A stretch of DNA of 9,242 nt, from IMG/VR virus record IMGVR_UViG_2700989544_000006; one strand, 5' to 3'. Both the position numbers and the translations under genes were made by a program. The notes beneath the pieces are model-generated. The model was not told the DNA's origin and made no database searches. It worked only from the letters and a program-made list of their open reading frames with translations. Positions 2,778-8,525 of this stretch are shown in pieces. How positions within the stretch are numbered: position 1 is the first letter of the stretch; each line of letters starts with the position of its first letter. The DNA is from a virus (lineage: Duplodnaviria > Heunggongvirae > Uroviricota > Caudoviricetes).

Positions 2778-3587
2778 TCAATGAACGGTATCGAGCAGCT
2801 TTAACAGCTCAGGGAATCGGGATTCGAAGAAATGCGGCTGCGTCTCGCGCGGATTTGCGGGACTGGTGATGTTCTTGCCGAACATGCAGCCTTTCGCCGT
2901 CAGCGACCAGAATTTTTTGATGTTGTTAATCGCGGTACGACTGTATCGTTCGCGCTGCTCGACGATCCCCAGTTTCACCATCTGGTGATATGCCTGATTA
3001 GCCGTCAGGCGTATACCATACTGTTTCAGCAGTGCACTCAGTGACAGTGTCGGGCGACTTGAGCCATCGTGTGCATCAGCAGGAGCATCAATGGCATAGC
3101 GCGGTGCCAGATTCGGTAAGCCAACAGCCTCCTGGAGTTTCTGACAGGCACCAAGCACAGATGAGTTAGACAGGTTTAACTCCCGACGCATAAAGTCCAG
3201 CAGAATCACACCAGCCTGCATCTTGTCAGCAGCCTGTCCGGATAATTTTTCCGGTGCGCTGGTTACCATGTCGAAAGTACGGATCACCTTAAGATGGAAT
3301 GACGGGCTTATCCACATTGCATAGGCATACACCAGTTCTTTGCAGACATACGTTCCCCGTTCATTTCCCCCATGAATCACACTCACCGGGTCAACACCCA
3401 AATTCTGGGTGTTGGTCAATTCATGAACAAGTTCAACAGTTTGTTGGCTGGAAAGAAACTTTCCTGGCTCCTTGGTTCTGGCATTTGCACCAGATGCTAC
3501 TGCTGCGCGATGTAGATCGTTCAGGCTGTAACGCCCATAAACATCACGACGAACTTCAATACCATCAATGACCATCAGATTATTCAT
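2778..3587 (-). CDS. KilA-N domain protein (antirepressor-like)
   Basis: N-terminal region (...YSLNDLHRAA...GGNERGTYVCKELVYAYAMWISPSFHLKVIRTFD) matches the KilA-N DNA-binding domain. Start taken at MNNLMVIDG (ATG 3585-3587), which has a GAGGAG RBS; the longer ORF start at 3620 would overlap rusA. Confidence 0.7.
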   Translation of the reverse strand: MNNLMVIDGIEVRRDVYGRYSLNDLHRAAVASGANARTKEPGKFLSSQQTVELVHELTNTQNLGVDPVSVIHGGNERGTYVCKELVYAYAMWISPSFHLKVIRTFDMVTSAPEKLSGQAADKMQAGVILLDFMRRELNLSNSSVLGACQKLQEAVGLPNLAPRYAIDAPADAHDGSSRPTLSLSALLKQYGIRLTANQAYHQMVKLGIVEQRERYSRTAINNIKKFWSLTAKGCMFGKNITSPANPRETQPHFFESRFPELLKLLDTVH

Positions 3588-3606
3588 ACTTCGTTTCTCC
3601 TCTTGA

Positions 3607-3996
3607 TCAGGCGGCTGCACCCGCCGTTTTCTCGTACTTACTGATAGTGATCTCGACCTTCCCTTTCGGGATAACCGGTCCCCACTCCACCAGCATTCTT
3701 TTCACCTGACTGTCGTCTTCCCACACACCCGCGTGGGTCAGGGCGTCAAACAGCGCCTTGTTATAGTTGTCCAGATCGCGGATCCTGTTATCCGGAGGAA
3801 ACAACACGATCTCCACTGAAGCAGGTGCCGACGTTGGTTTCGGCAGACGACGTAACTGCTCAATGATGGCGGCACACGCCGCGCTCTGAAATTTTCGCCC
3901 CGCCTCGCTTATCAGGCTCTTACCAGCAAATGCCCCTTTGTTGGGGTGTCGCCAGTACGTGTTCACGCTGGGCGGAAAAGGCAGTATTAGCTTCAT
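3607..3996 (-). CDS. rusA: Holliday junction resolvase RusA
   Basis: 129 aa with RusA hallmarks: LPFPPSVNTYWR N-terminus, catalytic acidic cluster RIRDLDNYNKALFDALT and WEDDSQV. Its start overlaps the upstream stop (ATGA). Confidence 0.85.
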   Translation of the reverse strand: MKLILPFPPSVNTYWRHPNKGAFAGKSLISEAGRKFQSAACAAIIEQLRRLPKPTSAPASVEIVLFPPDNRIRDLDNYNKALFDALTHAGVWEDDSQVKRMLVEWGPVIPKGKVEITISKYEKTAGAAA

Positions 3997-4740: not shown

Positions 4741-5559
4741 TCACCCCCTGAATCCTTCCGGGATCTGGCTGTAGTCCACGTTGTCGTAACTGGCTTTGAA
4801 GTACGGGTCCTCGCGTCTGACTGCAGATACCGCAGGAACTTCCCAGGATTCTTCGAAATGACGATCCGGGCCAAAGAACGTGACAGCCTGTTTCACAAAT
4901 TGTGTGCCGCTGTTACCCATCGCAGATACCCAGCCCGCGTAGCGTTTCACACCTTCCAGCATGGTTTCGGGGTTTACCCCCTCATTCAAACGGGCTTTCC
5001 AGGCTTTGAAGGCTGCAGATTTTGAATTGCCACCAGCACGTTTTGGATAGGCCAGCCATGCCTGCTCAAACTCCGGAGAGTATTCCGGTCGGTTTGAACG
5101 AACTCGCACAGACTCATCAGCAGATGCACCAACAGCTATTGGTTCATTGACTGGTTCTTTGACTGGTTCAAAAGAGTGACTGGTTCTGGGTGAATCTCCT
5201 GCACTACCCCCTGGTGCAACTCCTGCACTACCTGGTGAATTTGCTGCACCAGATAGTGAATTATTTGCACTACCCCCTAGTGAATCTCCTGCACCATCAA
5301 GATGAAGGAGATAGATATTACTTGAGTTACCTTTTTCACCTTTCCGGGTGACTTTTTTTACCAGCCCGGAATCACAAAGGGCCGCAATATGATTCATCAC
5401 AGAACGTTTGCTAATCTCGCACTGGTCAGCAATATGCTGGTAGCTGGGCCAGCACTCACCCTGATCGCTGGCATTATCAGCCAGCTTGATCAGAACCAGT
5501 TTTCGCAATGGATTACCCACTCGAATTTTCATCGCTTTAACCATCAGCTCCATACTCAT
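4741..5559 (-). CDS. Replication initiation protein (lambda O-like; N-terminal HTH replisome-organiser domain)
   Basis: N-terminus (KIRVGNPLRKLVLIKLADNASDQGECWPSYQHIADQCEISKRSVMNHIAAL) is a winged-helix replication-initiator domain, followed by a low-complexity linker encoded by iterons and a conserved C-terminal domain (EFEQAWLAYPKRAGGNSKSAAFKAWKARL). Strong RBS GGAGGT 4 nt upstream. Confidence 0.75.
   Translation of the reverse strand: MSMELMVKAMKIRVGNPLRKLVLIKLADNASDQGECWPSYQHIADQCEISKRSVMNHIAALCDSGLVKKVTRKGEKGNSSNIYLLHLDGAGDSLGGSANNSLSGAANSPGSAGVAPGGSAGDSPRTSHSFEPVKEPVNEPIAVGASADESVRVRSNRPEYSPEFEQAWLAYPKRAGGNSKSAAFKAWKARLNEGVNPETMLEGVKRYAGWVSAMGNSGTQFVKQAVTFFGPDRHFEESWEVPAVSAVRREDPYFKASYDNVDYSQIPEGFRG
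5148..5298. repeat. Iteron array (candidate replication origin) inside the O-like gene
   Basis: Three perfect TGACTGGTTC direct repeats (5148, 5160, 5177), then five 21-22 bp repeats of consensus GGTGAATCTCCTGCACTACC (5189-5298). An AT-rich stretch follows at 5299-5360. Confidence 0.6.
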
Positions 5560-5780
5560 GCTGCACCTCCGAGATGCTTCATGTTTTTTCCGGAGCGAAA
5601 GGCTATAAGCGGCATACTGACGCGGTAATTACGGCCCAGCGGTTCACAAATCACCTTCTGACATTCACGGTCAACCAGGCTAACACGTAGAACATGCCCT
5701 GCAGGCGTGGTGTACCACTGACCGGGGCGAGGACAACGGAAAGTCTGATTGGTAAATCGTTTGAAAATATTCCGGATCAT
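5556..5780 (-). CDS. Hypothetical small protein (74 aa)
   Basis: ATGA start/stop overlaps with both neighbours (5777-5780 and 5556-5559) and an AAGGGGG RBS; no recognisable motif. Confidence 0.5.
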
Positions 5781-6970
5781 TTGCGCCCCCTTACCTCTGA
5801 AGAGTTCAGCGACGAATGAATAAGACGGGCAAGAAATGCCGCATCGTTAATTCGGTCATACAGACTTACAGCCAGCGGTGATTCAGCTTTTTCCAGCATG
5901 GGATAAAGCTGCTGCAACCAGACCTGATGAATTGATGAAATGTAGGAATAGAGAACGCTGGCGTTATGTGCAACGTCGCTCGGTACAGAGGGCTTTGAAA
6001 GCTGTTTCTCCATCTGGTTAAAGGCATTGATGTATGCCTCTTTGAACTGGGCAGCACGTTTGCCAGTGAAGCCCATTGCCAGGAACGCGAAGCCGTCGCG
6101 GGTGATGTGGTAGCAAGGAAGTTTGCGAGTACCGCCGTTGGGCTGGTGTACCAAAATTGATGTCTCCGCAAAATTGCGGGCACAAAACTCTGGAGAACAA
6201 TCCAAAATGCGGATCTTTTTCAGAACATCGTCATGACGTTTAGAGAAGAAGTCAGCAACAGCCAAAGAAGATGTAACAGCCTGACCATCAACGATGGCAA
6301 TTTCAGGTTGAGAGAGGGTTGGGAGAGTAGTCATGGTGACAGCCCCGGTAGTCAGTTTTTCAGAAAACTCACCACATGGGACGCCAATCACAGAGGTGGT
6401 GAGACGTACAGGGTTGGCGTTACCGGAGACTACCGAACCCGGCCCGACCGAAGTCGGCCCTGTACGCCCCACCATAATTTGGGCGTAGCAATGCTCATGA
6501 CACGAAAAAACCGCATGAGCGCGGTTATGCTCAGTAATCAATTTCAGGACGCCAATCCCGGCACCCGCTTTATAAGGTGCCTGAACAGTGTAACGTCCCG
6601 GAATGGCAGAATCAATGTGCTGGTGGTCCTTCACACTCAACAAAATCACGCCTGAATTTCCACAAAGGACTAAAGCACTCATGCGGGTAGTCTTTGCGAA
6701 GATAGATAACGCGCTGTGTTTCTGGCTCCCAACGAATGACTCTGACGGGCACTCCGTAGTGATCTTTGAACCAGCGGTTAACTTGTCGCAAAGGACTGTC
6801 TCCTTCTGCCGGTTGAAATCACCCACAGCCCACTCTGCAAAGCTGTGGGTTACAATTTCCCTGTCACCTGGTACATTCACTGCATAGCAATACTCCACCT
6901 TCGCTTTTCCACCCGGTACAGGAAGCGCAATCAGTTGCGAGCGACGGTAGTGTGTTGTTAAACTGTTCAT
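5777..6970 (-). CDS. Composite protein: uncharacterised N-terminal region (about 210 aa) fused to a Rha-family phage regulatory domain
   Basis: Residues about 215-320 ([33 protein letters not shown]...[31 protein letters not shown]) match the Rha domain. The upstream 212 codons are in the same frame with no stop, and the ATG at 6970 overlaps the upstream gene's stop (ATGA). Confidence 0.6.
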
Positions 6971-7551
6971 GCGTTAGTTTCTCCACAACCAGAAGCAATC
7001 GACGCCACGACGCCCGGAGCTGCACACTCGCGGGCGTTACTCTTTTCCGGCGCACAAAAAACACGAAATAACAGTGTTAAATGCTCCTGCCACTTCGCCA
7101 TTACTTGGTAGCTGTTCTCTTCGATTTGCTCACGCTCAGCCTGGTCAATAACTCCATCAGCAGTTGCCTTGCGTAAGTACTGGGAATGCTTGCCAATCCA
7201 TTCTATTGACTCCATCAGCCGCTGATTAATGTCACCATTGTCAATGTCATCAATGACCACCAGCGGCACAAACACCCCATTACTACGACGGGCTATTGCA
7301 TCTGTTACATGCCTGGTACCACTGGCATCCTGTAAAACCATGGCCCACTCAAGTGGAAAAATTTGATCCCCACCGCTACGCAGTCTGTTATGCAATTGAT
7401 CTTTTGCTGGGGTGATATCATCAGATTTATACAAACCAAGAATTTCTGCTGCTTCCTCATAGCCATGAGGTAAATCAGCAATCGTTCTTCGTATTGCTGC
7501 CACCAGCCATGCTGGTTGTTTATCAACTTTCCATTCAGGTTCTTTACCCAC
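6967..7551 (-). CDS. YdaT/CII-like early regulatory protein
   Basis: 194 aa, immediately downstream of the Cro/YdaS-like gene, in the position held by cII or ydaT in lambdoid and Rac-like prophages. AGGA RBS 8 nt upstream. Family assignment is from position and general resemblance, not a confirmed domain hit. Confidence 0.45.
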
Positions 7552-7578: not shown

Positions 7579-7776
7579 TTATGCCGCAGCACTGTTAGTC
7601 TTTTGATATAAAGACACGTCAACTTTCAGTTTCCCGTTAGTAATTTTTTCTAACTGGTACGCTCGGCCTTCAGGAATAATCTCAGGCCACTCTGAAACAG
7701 ACGGATGCTTAATACCTAGGGCTTCGGCGGTTTTACAAACTCCGCCGAAATAATTAATCACGTCGGATTTCCGCAT
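7579..7776 (-). CDS. Cro/YdaS-family HTH transcriptional regulator
   Basis: 65 aa; FGGVCKTAEALGIKHPSVSEWPE...IPEGRAYQLEKITNGKL fits the YdaS/Cro pattern. Divergent from the cI-like gene across the operator region. RBS GGGAGA 5 nt upstream. Confidence 0.7.
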   Translation of the reverse strand: MRKSDVINYFGGVCKTAEALGIKHPSVSEWPEIIPEGRAYQLEKITNGKLKVDVSLYQKTNSAAA

Positions 7777-7807: not shown

Positions 7808-7873
7808 AATGTAGGATATCCAACATGCCAATGTCAAGAATCCTACATGGGCATGTGGTAGGATTGCCTACAT
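7808..7873. promoter_or_regulatory. Right operator region (OR) with pR-like promoter for the cro-like gene
   Basis: 18-bp near-palindromic operator ATGTAGGATATCCAACAT (7809-7826), plus related palindromic elements TCCTACATGGGCATGTGGTAGGA (7841-7863) and GTAGGATTGCCTAC (7858-7871), the last overlapping the cI start. Minus-strand promoter: -35 TTGACA (7832-7837), 18-nt spacer, -10 TACATT (7808-7813). Confidence 0.6.
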
Positions 7874-8525
7874 GATGAACATGAGTGATCGTATTCGCCA
7901 AAGGCGAAAAGAACTGAACCTGACACAACAAGCACTGGCTGATTTGACTGGTGTGAACCGTGTCACGGTTACTGGATGGGAAAAGGACGACTACCAACCA
8001 AATGGAGCCAACCTTCAAGCCCTAGCCAACGCACTTAAATGCGATCCTCTGTGGCTTGTTAGCGGAAAAGGCTCGCCTGAACCAAAGATAAATCTAAAAC
8101 CTGAAATATTCGCAGTTAAAAAAGTCCCCCTCATCTCGTGGGTTCAGGCGGGTTCATGGACAATGACGGAGCCTGGTGTCAGGAAAGAAGATGCTGAAGA
8201 GTGGGTTTATACTACCGCCCTTGTATCAGAAATGGCATTTGCACTACGGGTCCGTGGTGATTCAATGACCAATCCCCTCGGCTCACCATCGATACCAGAA
8301 GGTTCTATCGTTATCGTAGAGCCAGATATTATTGATACAGAGTGTATTAACGGAAAAATCGTTGTTGCCCATATCAATGGTGGGCAAGAAGCGACACTCA
8401 AAAAATTTGTTGAGGACTGGCCGAACAGGTATCTCGTCCCACTAAATCCTAACTATAAAACTATTGAATGCGGTGAAAACTGCAGAATAGTTGGTCTTGT
8501 CAAACAAGTAATAATGGATTTTTGA
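7872..8525 (+). CDS. CI-like prophage repressor (HTH plus S24 LexA-like autopeptidase domain)
   Basis: N-terminal XRE-type HTH (LTQQALADLTGVNRVTVTGWEKDD), candidate Ala-Gly cleavage site (VQAGSW), Ser nucleophile in RGDSM and Lys in TLKKF, the CI/LexA architecture. Start could be 7872 or 7881. Confidence 0.85.
   Translation: MMNMSDRIRQRRKELNLTQQALADLTGVNRVTVTGWEKDDYQPNGANLQALANALKCDPLWLVSGKGSPEPKINLKPEIFAVKKVPLISWVQAGSWTMTEPGVRKEDAEEWVYTTALVSEMAFALRVRGDSMTNPLGSPSIPEGSIVIVEPDIIDTECINGKIVVAHINGGQEATLKKFVEDWPNRYLVPLNPNYKTIECGENCRIVGLVKQVIMDF

Follow-up and report, generated by a model that had tools for sequence, protein, structure and literature searches.

A 397-codon open reading frame (ORF; 5777..6970, minus strand) in a 9,242-nucleotide (nt) stretch of Caudoviricetes DNA (IMG/VR record IMGVR_UViG_2700989544_000006; the whole stretch is hereafter called the window) carries a Rha regulatory domain in its C-terminal part, and the question that it raises is what the 212 codons in front of the Rha-type gene stand for. 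The original prediction, made from the letters of the window alone, had described the frame accurately: we found the ORF at the positions above, its ATG (6970-6968) overlaps the TGA (6969-6967) of the preceding gene, ymfL, the 212 preceding codons are all open, and the Rha domain occupies amino acids (aa) 233-322 (PF09669, E 1e-26, 93.7 bits against a cut-off of 29.9; TIGR02681, 90.2 bits against 45.95). The answer that we arrive at is that the ORF is probably a composite read-through frame of the type of eta/kil in satellite phage P4, with a nested gene, in the early-right operon of a lambdoid prophage. This answer is carried by the anatomy of the frame, by the complementarity and co-variation of the RNA segments within it and by the pattern of selection along it. 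All coordinates below refer to the minus strand of the window unless another strand or another genome is named.

Anatomy of the 397-codon frame

The N-terminal 212 residues had been thought to match no motif. In our searches, matches to Phage_ASH, phrog_1170, phrog_821, YmfM, DUF4222, isrK and C4 were all obtained there, some of them to proteins, one to a gene in another frame and some to RNA. As regards the 397-aa protein itself, Pfam Phage_ASH (PF10554) matched aa 127-222 (E 9e-11, 42.6 bits against a cut-off of 26), and PHROGs split the protein between phrog_1170, a stand-alone family of 112 aa (aa 1-108), and phrog_821, a family of 324 aa (aa 76-397); the NCBIfam search left residues 1-220 without a match. 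Codons 1-58 (6797..6970) are the N-terminus of YmfM and form a conserved small-protein segment on which purifying selection acts in the frame of the long ORF: identity to YmfM of the e14 prophage of Escherichia coli K-12 is 100% over aa 1-82 and 91% over aa 1-99, and a stand-alone counterpart of these codons exists as a 65-aa ORF in Citrobacter phage phiNP. Codons 60-120 are overlapped by a DUF4222 gene of 59 aa that is read in another frame (6612..6791; PF13973, E 1.9e-16, 59.8 bits against a cut-off of 27). This gene starts with TTG, 8 nt past AAGGAG, and is annotated separately by the Prokaryotic Genome Annotation Pipeline (PGAP) in relatives; its stop overlaps the -35 hexamer of a putative promoter for the RNA IsrK.

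The remainder of the 212 codons is occupied by an RNA cassette. The genes for two structured RNAs, isrK and C4, lie on the ORF's own strand under codons 131-193. The upstream one is an IsrK/seqA-like RNA (6504..6580; Rfam RF01394, 59.3 bits against a gathering threshold of 50), and the downstream one is a C4/CI-type antisense immunity RNA (6392..6479; Rfam RF01695, 82.3 bits against a gathering threshold of 45, model positions 1-87 of 87); Rfam also gave a sub-threshold match to the a1b1 target family inside the ORF. Six nt ahead of IsrK, a putative internal promoter, here named PisrK and equivalent to P4 PLE, can be read from the sequence as TTGATT-17-TACACT (6587..6615). IsrK itself contains the C4 targets a1 (6556-6548) and b1 (6539-6532) and, according to the promoter/terminator scan, ends in an intrinsic terminator (6526-6504; stem 6526-6509 plus a T run). 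Within C4, the loop of the second hairpin constitutes b' (CGGUAGUC, 6435-6428), and the single-stranded segment next to it constitutes a' (ACGCCAA, 6420-6414). An AUG at C4 positions 5-7 (6473..6475, codon M166) is the counterpart of the first start of orf45 in the Gifsy-1 prophage and is in frame with the Rha gene. Downstream of C4 follows a seqC-like leader (6343..6388; predicted duplex -28.6 kcal/mol) with the targets a2 (AUUGGCGUC, 6388-6380) and b2 (GACUACCG, 6353-6346) and a GGGG Shine-Dalgarno sequence (6346-6343), which shares one base with b2 and lies 8 nt before an internal ATG (6334-6332, codon M213). From C4 to this ATG there are 57 nt. The two peptides that the original prediction had singled out as unrecognised find their place in this map: the 18-residue peptide (nt 6664-6611) is the off-frame 3' end of DUF4222 plus the -35 box, and the 26-residue peptide (nt 6505-6428) is the spacer past the IsrK terminator plus the 5' half of C4.

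We compared the window with 16 further IsrK-C4 loci, namely 15 related loci and P4, giving 17 loci in total; they include E. coli prophages, phages 1720a-02, mEp460, ST64B, SfV and ASU11, Stx1 and Stx2 phages, a P2-like phage, a Yersinia phage and phage F004. Rfam found the isrK and C4 pair in P4 and in each of the 15 related loci scanned, and in 17 of 17 loci a -35/-10 pair lies at the same distance from isrK. Likewise, a' and b' are complementary both to a1 and b1 in IsrK and to a2 and b2 downstream of C4 in all 17 loci. The three copies, in the C4 loop, in the IsrK target and in the downstream target, vary between loci yet change together. Thus, b' and b2 are CGGUAGUC and GACUACCG in the window, CUGUGGAA and UUCCACAG in AH04, CCUUGAUC and GAUCAAGG in ASU11, and CCUGUGAA and UUCACAGG in P4. 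The mean predicted duplex energies of C4 with its own targets were -34 and -35 kcal/mol, compared with -23 and -22 kcal/mol with the targets of other loci. Judged by this co-variation, the RNA cassette looks functional.

The nested gene that the cassette precedes (5777..6334, codons 213-397) encodes a Rha-type, AnrP-like antirepressor of 185 aa with Pfam and TIGRFAM matches. In this product the Rha domain spans residues 21-110 (nt 6274-6005) and so lies near the N-terminus. The target b2 adjoins or overlaps the Shine-Dalgarno sequence of a conserved ATG in all 17 loci, the start of P4 kil included, and the record of phage F004 annotates isrK, C4 and a coding sequence that begins at exactly the nested ATG. 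Because the b2/Shine-Dalgarno-ATG arrangement is conserved and the F004 coding sequence starts there, M213 is best read as the start of a conventional 185-aa Rha gene. Furthermore, the first residues of P4 Kil, MATTLTPSHPE, align with the 11 residues that start at M213. The suggestion that the internal ATG could give a short Rha protein is thus borne out by the conserved nested start, by b2 lying over its Shine-Dalgarno sequence, by the homology to P4 kil and by the F004 annotation. A sequence search of the Protein Data Bank with the 185-aa protein returned chance matches only (E >= 0.28).

Some prophages carry the cassette and the Rha gene as tandem units in two or three copies, ∼656 nt apart (869 nt in L121); this was seen at P0097/P0098, L038, L039, L052, L095, L114 and L121. 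The tandem copies yield Ash-Rha-Ash-Rha frames in Salmonella proteins of 593-598 aa (P0097/P0098), and tandem cassettes would be arrays of differing immunity specificities.

Selection on the frame and competing explanations

The ratio of nonsynonymous to synonymous differences per site (pN/pS) was calculated by the Nei-Gojobori method in all three frames for diverged pairs. For codons 1-58, compared with Klebsiella KpF5 and Citrobacter phiNP, pN/pS was 0.33-0.59 in the long-ORF frame versus 0.8-1.9 in the other two. In the segment that follows, it was 0.13-0.39 in the DUF4222 frame versus 1.1-1.9 in the long-ORF frame. From IsrK to the nested ATG, pN/pS was about 0.6-2 in all three frames, and the substitutions in this cassette are spread evenly over codon positions, without codon periodicity. 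The Rha gene, in its own frame, gave 0.27 against ST64B, the only pair usable with ungapped alignment, as the other pairs contain indels and were discarded. Consistent with the pattern in the cassette, Gifsy-1 orf45 has been described as conserved in nucleotides and not in amino acids (PMC4825925). The DNA under the Phage_ASH match (nt 6592-6305) is IsrK, C4 and the leader downstream of C4, and P4 Eta matches the same profile over its full length (E 4.5e-23, profile positions 1-107 of 107, P4 8330-8704). Despite its above-cut-off match, Phage_ASH showed no amino-acid conservation here (pN/pS about 0.6-2). Because the match coincides exactly with seqA/IsrK, CI/C4 and seqC both here and in P4, and because pN/pS is about 1, Phage_ASH appears to be the translation, or "protein shadow," of a conserved RNA cassette and not a folded domain.

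These results bear directly on the idea, raised in the original prediction, of a multidomain regulator of 397 aa in which Rha is fused to a new folded domain, a sensor or an effector, made up of residues 1-212. An open frame that is conserved in hundreds of genomes, the Phage_ASH match that Pfam reports in it and the ATGA coupling of its start to ymfL would all fit such a regulator; however, residues 60-120 are off-frame DUF4222 (pN/pS 1.1-1.9), residues from about 131 to 212 are IsrK, C4 and their targets without third-position bias, what the Ash profile matches in P4 is exactly the RNA cassette, and in a common 387-aa form of the fusion residues 1-75 are replaced by unrelated sequence. The stretch in question is thus off-frame DUF4222 plus an RNA cassette, whose amino acids evolve neutrally, and we consider a new domain very improbable. 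The original prediction had named two findings that would speak against it, homologues with residues 1-212 as a separate gene and a profile match to a known domain, and each turned out to be partly the case. We judge it nearly beyond belief that ymfM and the Rha gene became joined through a recent strain-specific stop loss or through a sequencing frameshift. It is true that E. coli AR_0013 carries the same YmfM N-terminus with a stop after 112 codons, and that it has YmfM (112 aa), DUF4222 (63 aa) and a Rha ORF of 284 aa as separate genes; AH04 similarly has DUF4222 and a Rha ORF of 275 aa, and SfII, e14 and KpF5 have ymfM/DUF4222 without Rha. However, several independent assemblies contain the 397-aa protein unchanged or in forms 97-99% identical to it (P0001-P0003), 392- and 393-aa forms combine the same N-terminus with different cassettes (P0004, P0079), and the analogous 387-aa fusion is found in hundreds of contigs. 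Because independent assemblies carry forms of 397, 393, 392 and 387 aa, a strain-specific stop loss can be set aside. Of the suggestion that the fusion arose by loss of a stop codon, therefore, the part that stands is that the genes are separate in close relatives; since no other design is as common as the fused frame, which looks selected, the fusion is not a one-off accident.

A more serious alternative is that the long frame is purely an annotation artefact, never translated as a unit, whose openness was inherited by chance with the conserved RNA and DUF4222 sequence. The sole products would then be YmfM-N (or nothing), DUF4222, IsrK, C4 and, from M213, the Rha protein of 185 aa, whose synthesis might be aided by an upstream ORF (uORF) from AUG 6475. 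The absence of amino-acid constraint over codons from about 59 to 212, the separate genes in AR_0013 and AH04 and the intrinsic terminator inside the ORF are what this explanation predicts, and the route with experimental support in Gifsy-1 is indeed uORF coupling from the isrK promoter (PMC4825925). Against it stands the openness of one particular frame in segments that otherwise vary freely. In 13 loci that share one geometry (12 distinct sequences), stops between IsrK +1 and the nested ATG occur at 0 distinct positions in the frame of the nested gene, compared with 12 positions in one of the other frames and 14 in the remaining one. In 16 of 17 loci, the C4 AUG and the nested ATG are 138 or 141 nt apart. 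Where IsrK plus spacer varies in length, the difference is 84, 9 or -3 nt in three of four cases, and three unrelated 5' modules (390, 354-360 and 228 nt) are each in frame from the stop of the upstream gene. In a second and independent sample of 88 distinct C4 cassettes from IMG/VR (L022-L141), the fused, P4 eta-type frame is open through IsrK and at least 100 codons downstream in 59, and no frame other than that of the nested gene spans the cassette in any of the 88. In addition, P4 eta has been reported to be translated and functionally required (PMC10111431). For these reasons we regard the artefact as unlikely, and we argue from the sequence comparison that selection appears to keep the frame open rather than to maintain the amino acids of codons from about 59 to 212.

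Several observations weigh against a P4 eta/kil-type read-through frame. A short uORF of the Gifsy-1 orf45 type, running 14-45 codons from the C4 AUG, occurs in 25 of the 88 cassettes (28%), as the artefact explanation would also have it, and another four have intermediate designs. The eta-like ORF begins after DUF4222 in AR_0013 and AH04, and the frame is broken in F004 and in a Yersinia phage; because the fused frame is not universal, read-through from ymfL would be dispensable in some phages. The counts of stops and open frames are not phylogenetically independent, since the loci share ancestry and stop positions are therefore not independent events, and where it crosses the conserved DUF4222 gene, the long frame could be open through chance inheritance. 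The putative PisrK is proposed from its position and its match to consensus (8/12), and it is missing from the list of the automatic promoter scan because of this low score. Finally, an AlphaFold2 model of the 397-aa protein from a 10-sequence alignment (mean predicted local distance difference test score 33.8, predicted template modelling score 0.21, Rha domain <50) provides a structural argument neither way and was not used as evidence.

Known systems, operon context and a possible mechanism

The closest known counterpart is eta/kil of P4. The P4 eta ORF (P4 8812-8168), in which three Met codons give proteins of 197-199 aa, runs through seqA (isrK match, 60.8 bits) and CI (C4 match, 74.9 bits) and ends as the 65-aa kil. 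In both systems the long ORF has an ATG that forms an ATGA overlap with the stop of the preceding gene (ORF88 in P4), and in both a promoter-like site or internal promoter, seqA/IsrK, CI/C4 and a target over the Shine-Dalgarno sequence of the nested gene share one frame with that gene; the homologous first residues of the nested genes and the Phage_ASH match over the cassette are further common features. The systems differ in the nested gene (a 185-aa Rha antirepressor here, a 65-aa Kil in P4), in the 5' extension (130 codons here, made of the YmfM-type segment and the overlapping DUF4222 gene, compared with 40 in P4), in the IsrK-C4 spacer (24 nt here, 107 nt in P4) and in the upstream promoter, which would be a repressor-controlled lambdoid PR here and is PLL in P4. 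According to a paper summarising Forti et al. 1999, J Bacteriol 181:5225 (PMC10111431), constitutive transcripts from the internal promoter of P4 terminate via CI-seqA interactions and yield CI. The same secondary summary states that Kil is translated on read-through only, whereas full-length Eta is translated only from the upstream promoter, coupled to the upstream gene, and that this translation prevents termination (PMC10111431). The Rfam C4 and isrK models are also known to detect CI/seqA relatives within Bro-network genes (PMC10111431).

Two further systems are informative. In the Salmonella prophage Gifsy-1, IsrK, a structural homologue of seqA, and STnc1160/orf45 have been described (Hershko-Shalev et al. 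2016, PMC4825925), and IsrK with its terminator, a C4-like stable RNA (STnc1160) and an antirepressor follow each other in the same order as in the window (PMC4825925). The first uORF AUG lies at C4 positions 5-7 in both, and in both the cassette is conserved in nucleotides, not in amino acids. However, the stop of orf45 overlaps the anrP AUG as AUGA in Gifsy-1 (PMC4825925), whereas no uORF stop follows AUG 6475 in the window: the frame runs 141 nt to ATG 6334 and then into the Rha gene, and it is also open upstream as far as ymfL. Moreover, the Gifsy-1 locus lies downstream of antQ and the present one in the early-right operon. The founding example of C4 control of an antirepressor is immI of P1 and P7, with c4 RNA, icd and ant (Citron and Schuster 1990; reviewed in PMC12197685). 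There, as here, a C4-family antisense RNA is made from the transcript that C4 controls, its a'/b' loops pair around the ribosome binding site upstream of an antirepressor gene and loop-target co-variation defines immunity types. In contrast to immI, the RNA of the window lies inside a long open frame, a separate icd ORF is absent from the interval between C4 and the Rha ATG, and NCBIfam gave no Icd-like match at E <= 1.

The window as a whole is the early region of a lambdoid prophage, as identified by ORF calls and Pfam and NCBIfam profiles. It has a cI-like S24 repressor gene (7872-8525, plus strand) and, on the opposite strand, a PR-like sigma-70 promoter upstream of cro (7808..7837; TTGACA-18-TACATT, 10/12 versus consensus, automatic promoter scan), which is presumably the source of a transcript carrying cro, ymfL and the long ORF. 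The genes are cro (7579-7776; Pfam P22_Cro match), the cII-like regulator ymfL (6967..7551; NF041471, E 8e-54), the 397-codon, eta-like ORF, a 74-aa ORF (orf74, 5556..5780) that is ATGA-coupled to the stop of the long ORF and is a hypothetical protein in the annotation of relatives, and a replication gene (4741-5559; helix-turn-helix/DnaD-like) that is in turn ATGA-coupled to orf74. Thus, ATGA overlaps of start and stop join four consecutive genes between 4741 and 7551 (ymfL, the 397-codon ORF, orf74 and the replication gene), and this series suggests a single translationally coupled chain from PR to the replication functions. Beyond the replication gene follow, in minus-strand order, Dam, RusA, a KilA-N protein, DUF968 and Q. 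The KilA-N gene (2778-3620, 280 aa, E 4.6e-22) is a second antirepressor-like gene further down the same operon, and no RNA cassette was detected ahead of it. Downstream of the Q antiterminator region, at 104-163, Rfam gave a partial tRNA-like match (37.3 bits, model positions 7-64) where ARAGORN called no tRNA; this could be what is left of a tRNA, or else a tRNA gene whose acceptor stem is degenerate.

From P4 eta/kil, P1 c4-ant and Gifsy-1 isrK-orf45-anrP we infer how this arrangement would work. In a lysogen PR would be off, and IsrK and read-through transcripts would originate from the internal promoter, with C4 being derived from the read-through transcripts. Pairing of C4 with a2 and b2 would mask the ribosome binding site of the nested Rha gene, and hence no antirepressor would be made. 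Upon derepression of PR, ribosomes leaving ymfL would start again at ATG 6970 and continue across DUF4222 (off frame), IsrK, C4 and the targets. Such translation would stop the IsrK terminator and the C4-target duplexes from forming, so that transcription could extend into orf74 and the replication gene, and a long polypeptide would be made with the Rha domain at its C-terminus. The specific proposal that ymfL-coupled translation acts as a "ribosome conveyor," by which RNA polymerase would get beyond both the IsrK terminator and the C4 block, is drawn by analogy, and we offer it tentatively, as possible but rather doubtful. If it is true, the same DNA would be immune-silenced when transcribed from the internal promoter and insensitive to immunity when transcribed from PR, and expression of the replication gene would depend on an ORF whose middle 150 codons are without protein function.

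Annotation of the family, YmfM and wider meaning

Entries of 321-397 aa named "Rha family regulator" or "peptidase" exist in hundreds of E. coli, Shigella and Salmonella genomes, and the first 210 residues of such entries are not to be taken as protein domains. The results also touch on YmfM of E. coli K-12, which is annotated as an SOS-inducible cell division inhibitor encoded by e14 (Ansari et al., bioRxiv 10.1101/2020.11.19.390815). Besides the shared N-terminal residues, e14 ymfM has the same position after ymfL and the same ATGA coupling as the long ORF of the window. It differs in being an ORF of 112 codons followed directly by the replication gene oweE, whereas in the window there is no stop at codon 112, and a scan of the e14 region did not find isrK, C4 or Rha. 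At the DNA level, e14 matches window positions 7037-6667 at 96% and then diverges straight into the replication gene. We considered e14 as a derivative from which the cassette had been deleted, and rejected this as the sole reading because the functional SfII and KpF5 share the cassette-less order of ymfL, ymfM/DUF4222 and replication gene.

Within the ymfM ORF of e14 (e14 4823-5161), another frame contains an intact DUF4222 ORF (Pfam E 8.6e-19), which ends 8 nt into oweE. Conservation of ymfM at the protein level extends over about the first 58 codons only, and it is DUF4222, and not YmfM, that PGAP annotates in the E. coli genomes listed for this module; the module occurs in about 2000 genomes. 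The filamentation phenotype was assigned by expressing the whole ymfM ORF, and a text search of the preprint in question turned up no passage on frameshift or stop-codon controls (Ansari et al., bioRxiv 10.1101/2020.11.19.390815). The phenotype could be owed to the conserved 58-residue N-terminus or to the hidden DUF4222 gene. As a corollary of coupled translation from ymfL through the long frame, K-12 YmfM may be only a stub of such a frame.

The by-products of this analysis, that is, the apparent protein shadow named Phage_ASH, the hidden DUF4222 gene and the possible ymfM stub, are probably more useful than the answer to the original question, and no new principle is involved, as the design has already been worked out for P4 and Gifsy-1. 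Overall, what the locus adds is that common lambdoid prophages, Stx-converting phages among them, have in their early-right operon a P4/P1-style antisense-RNA immunity switch that guards an antirepressor, and such a switch bears on prophage induction and on cross-talk between co-resident prophages.

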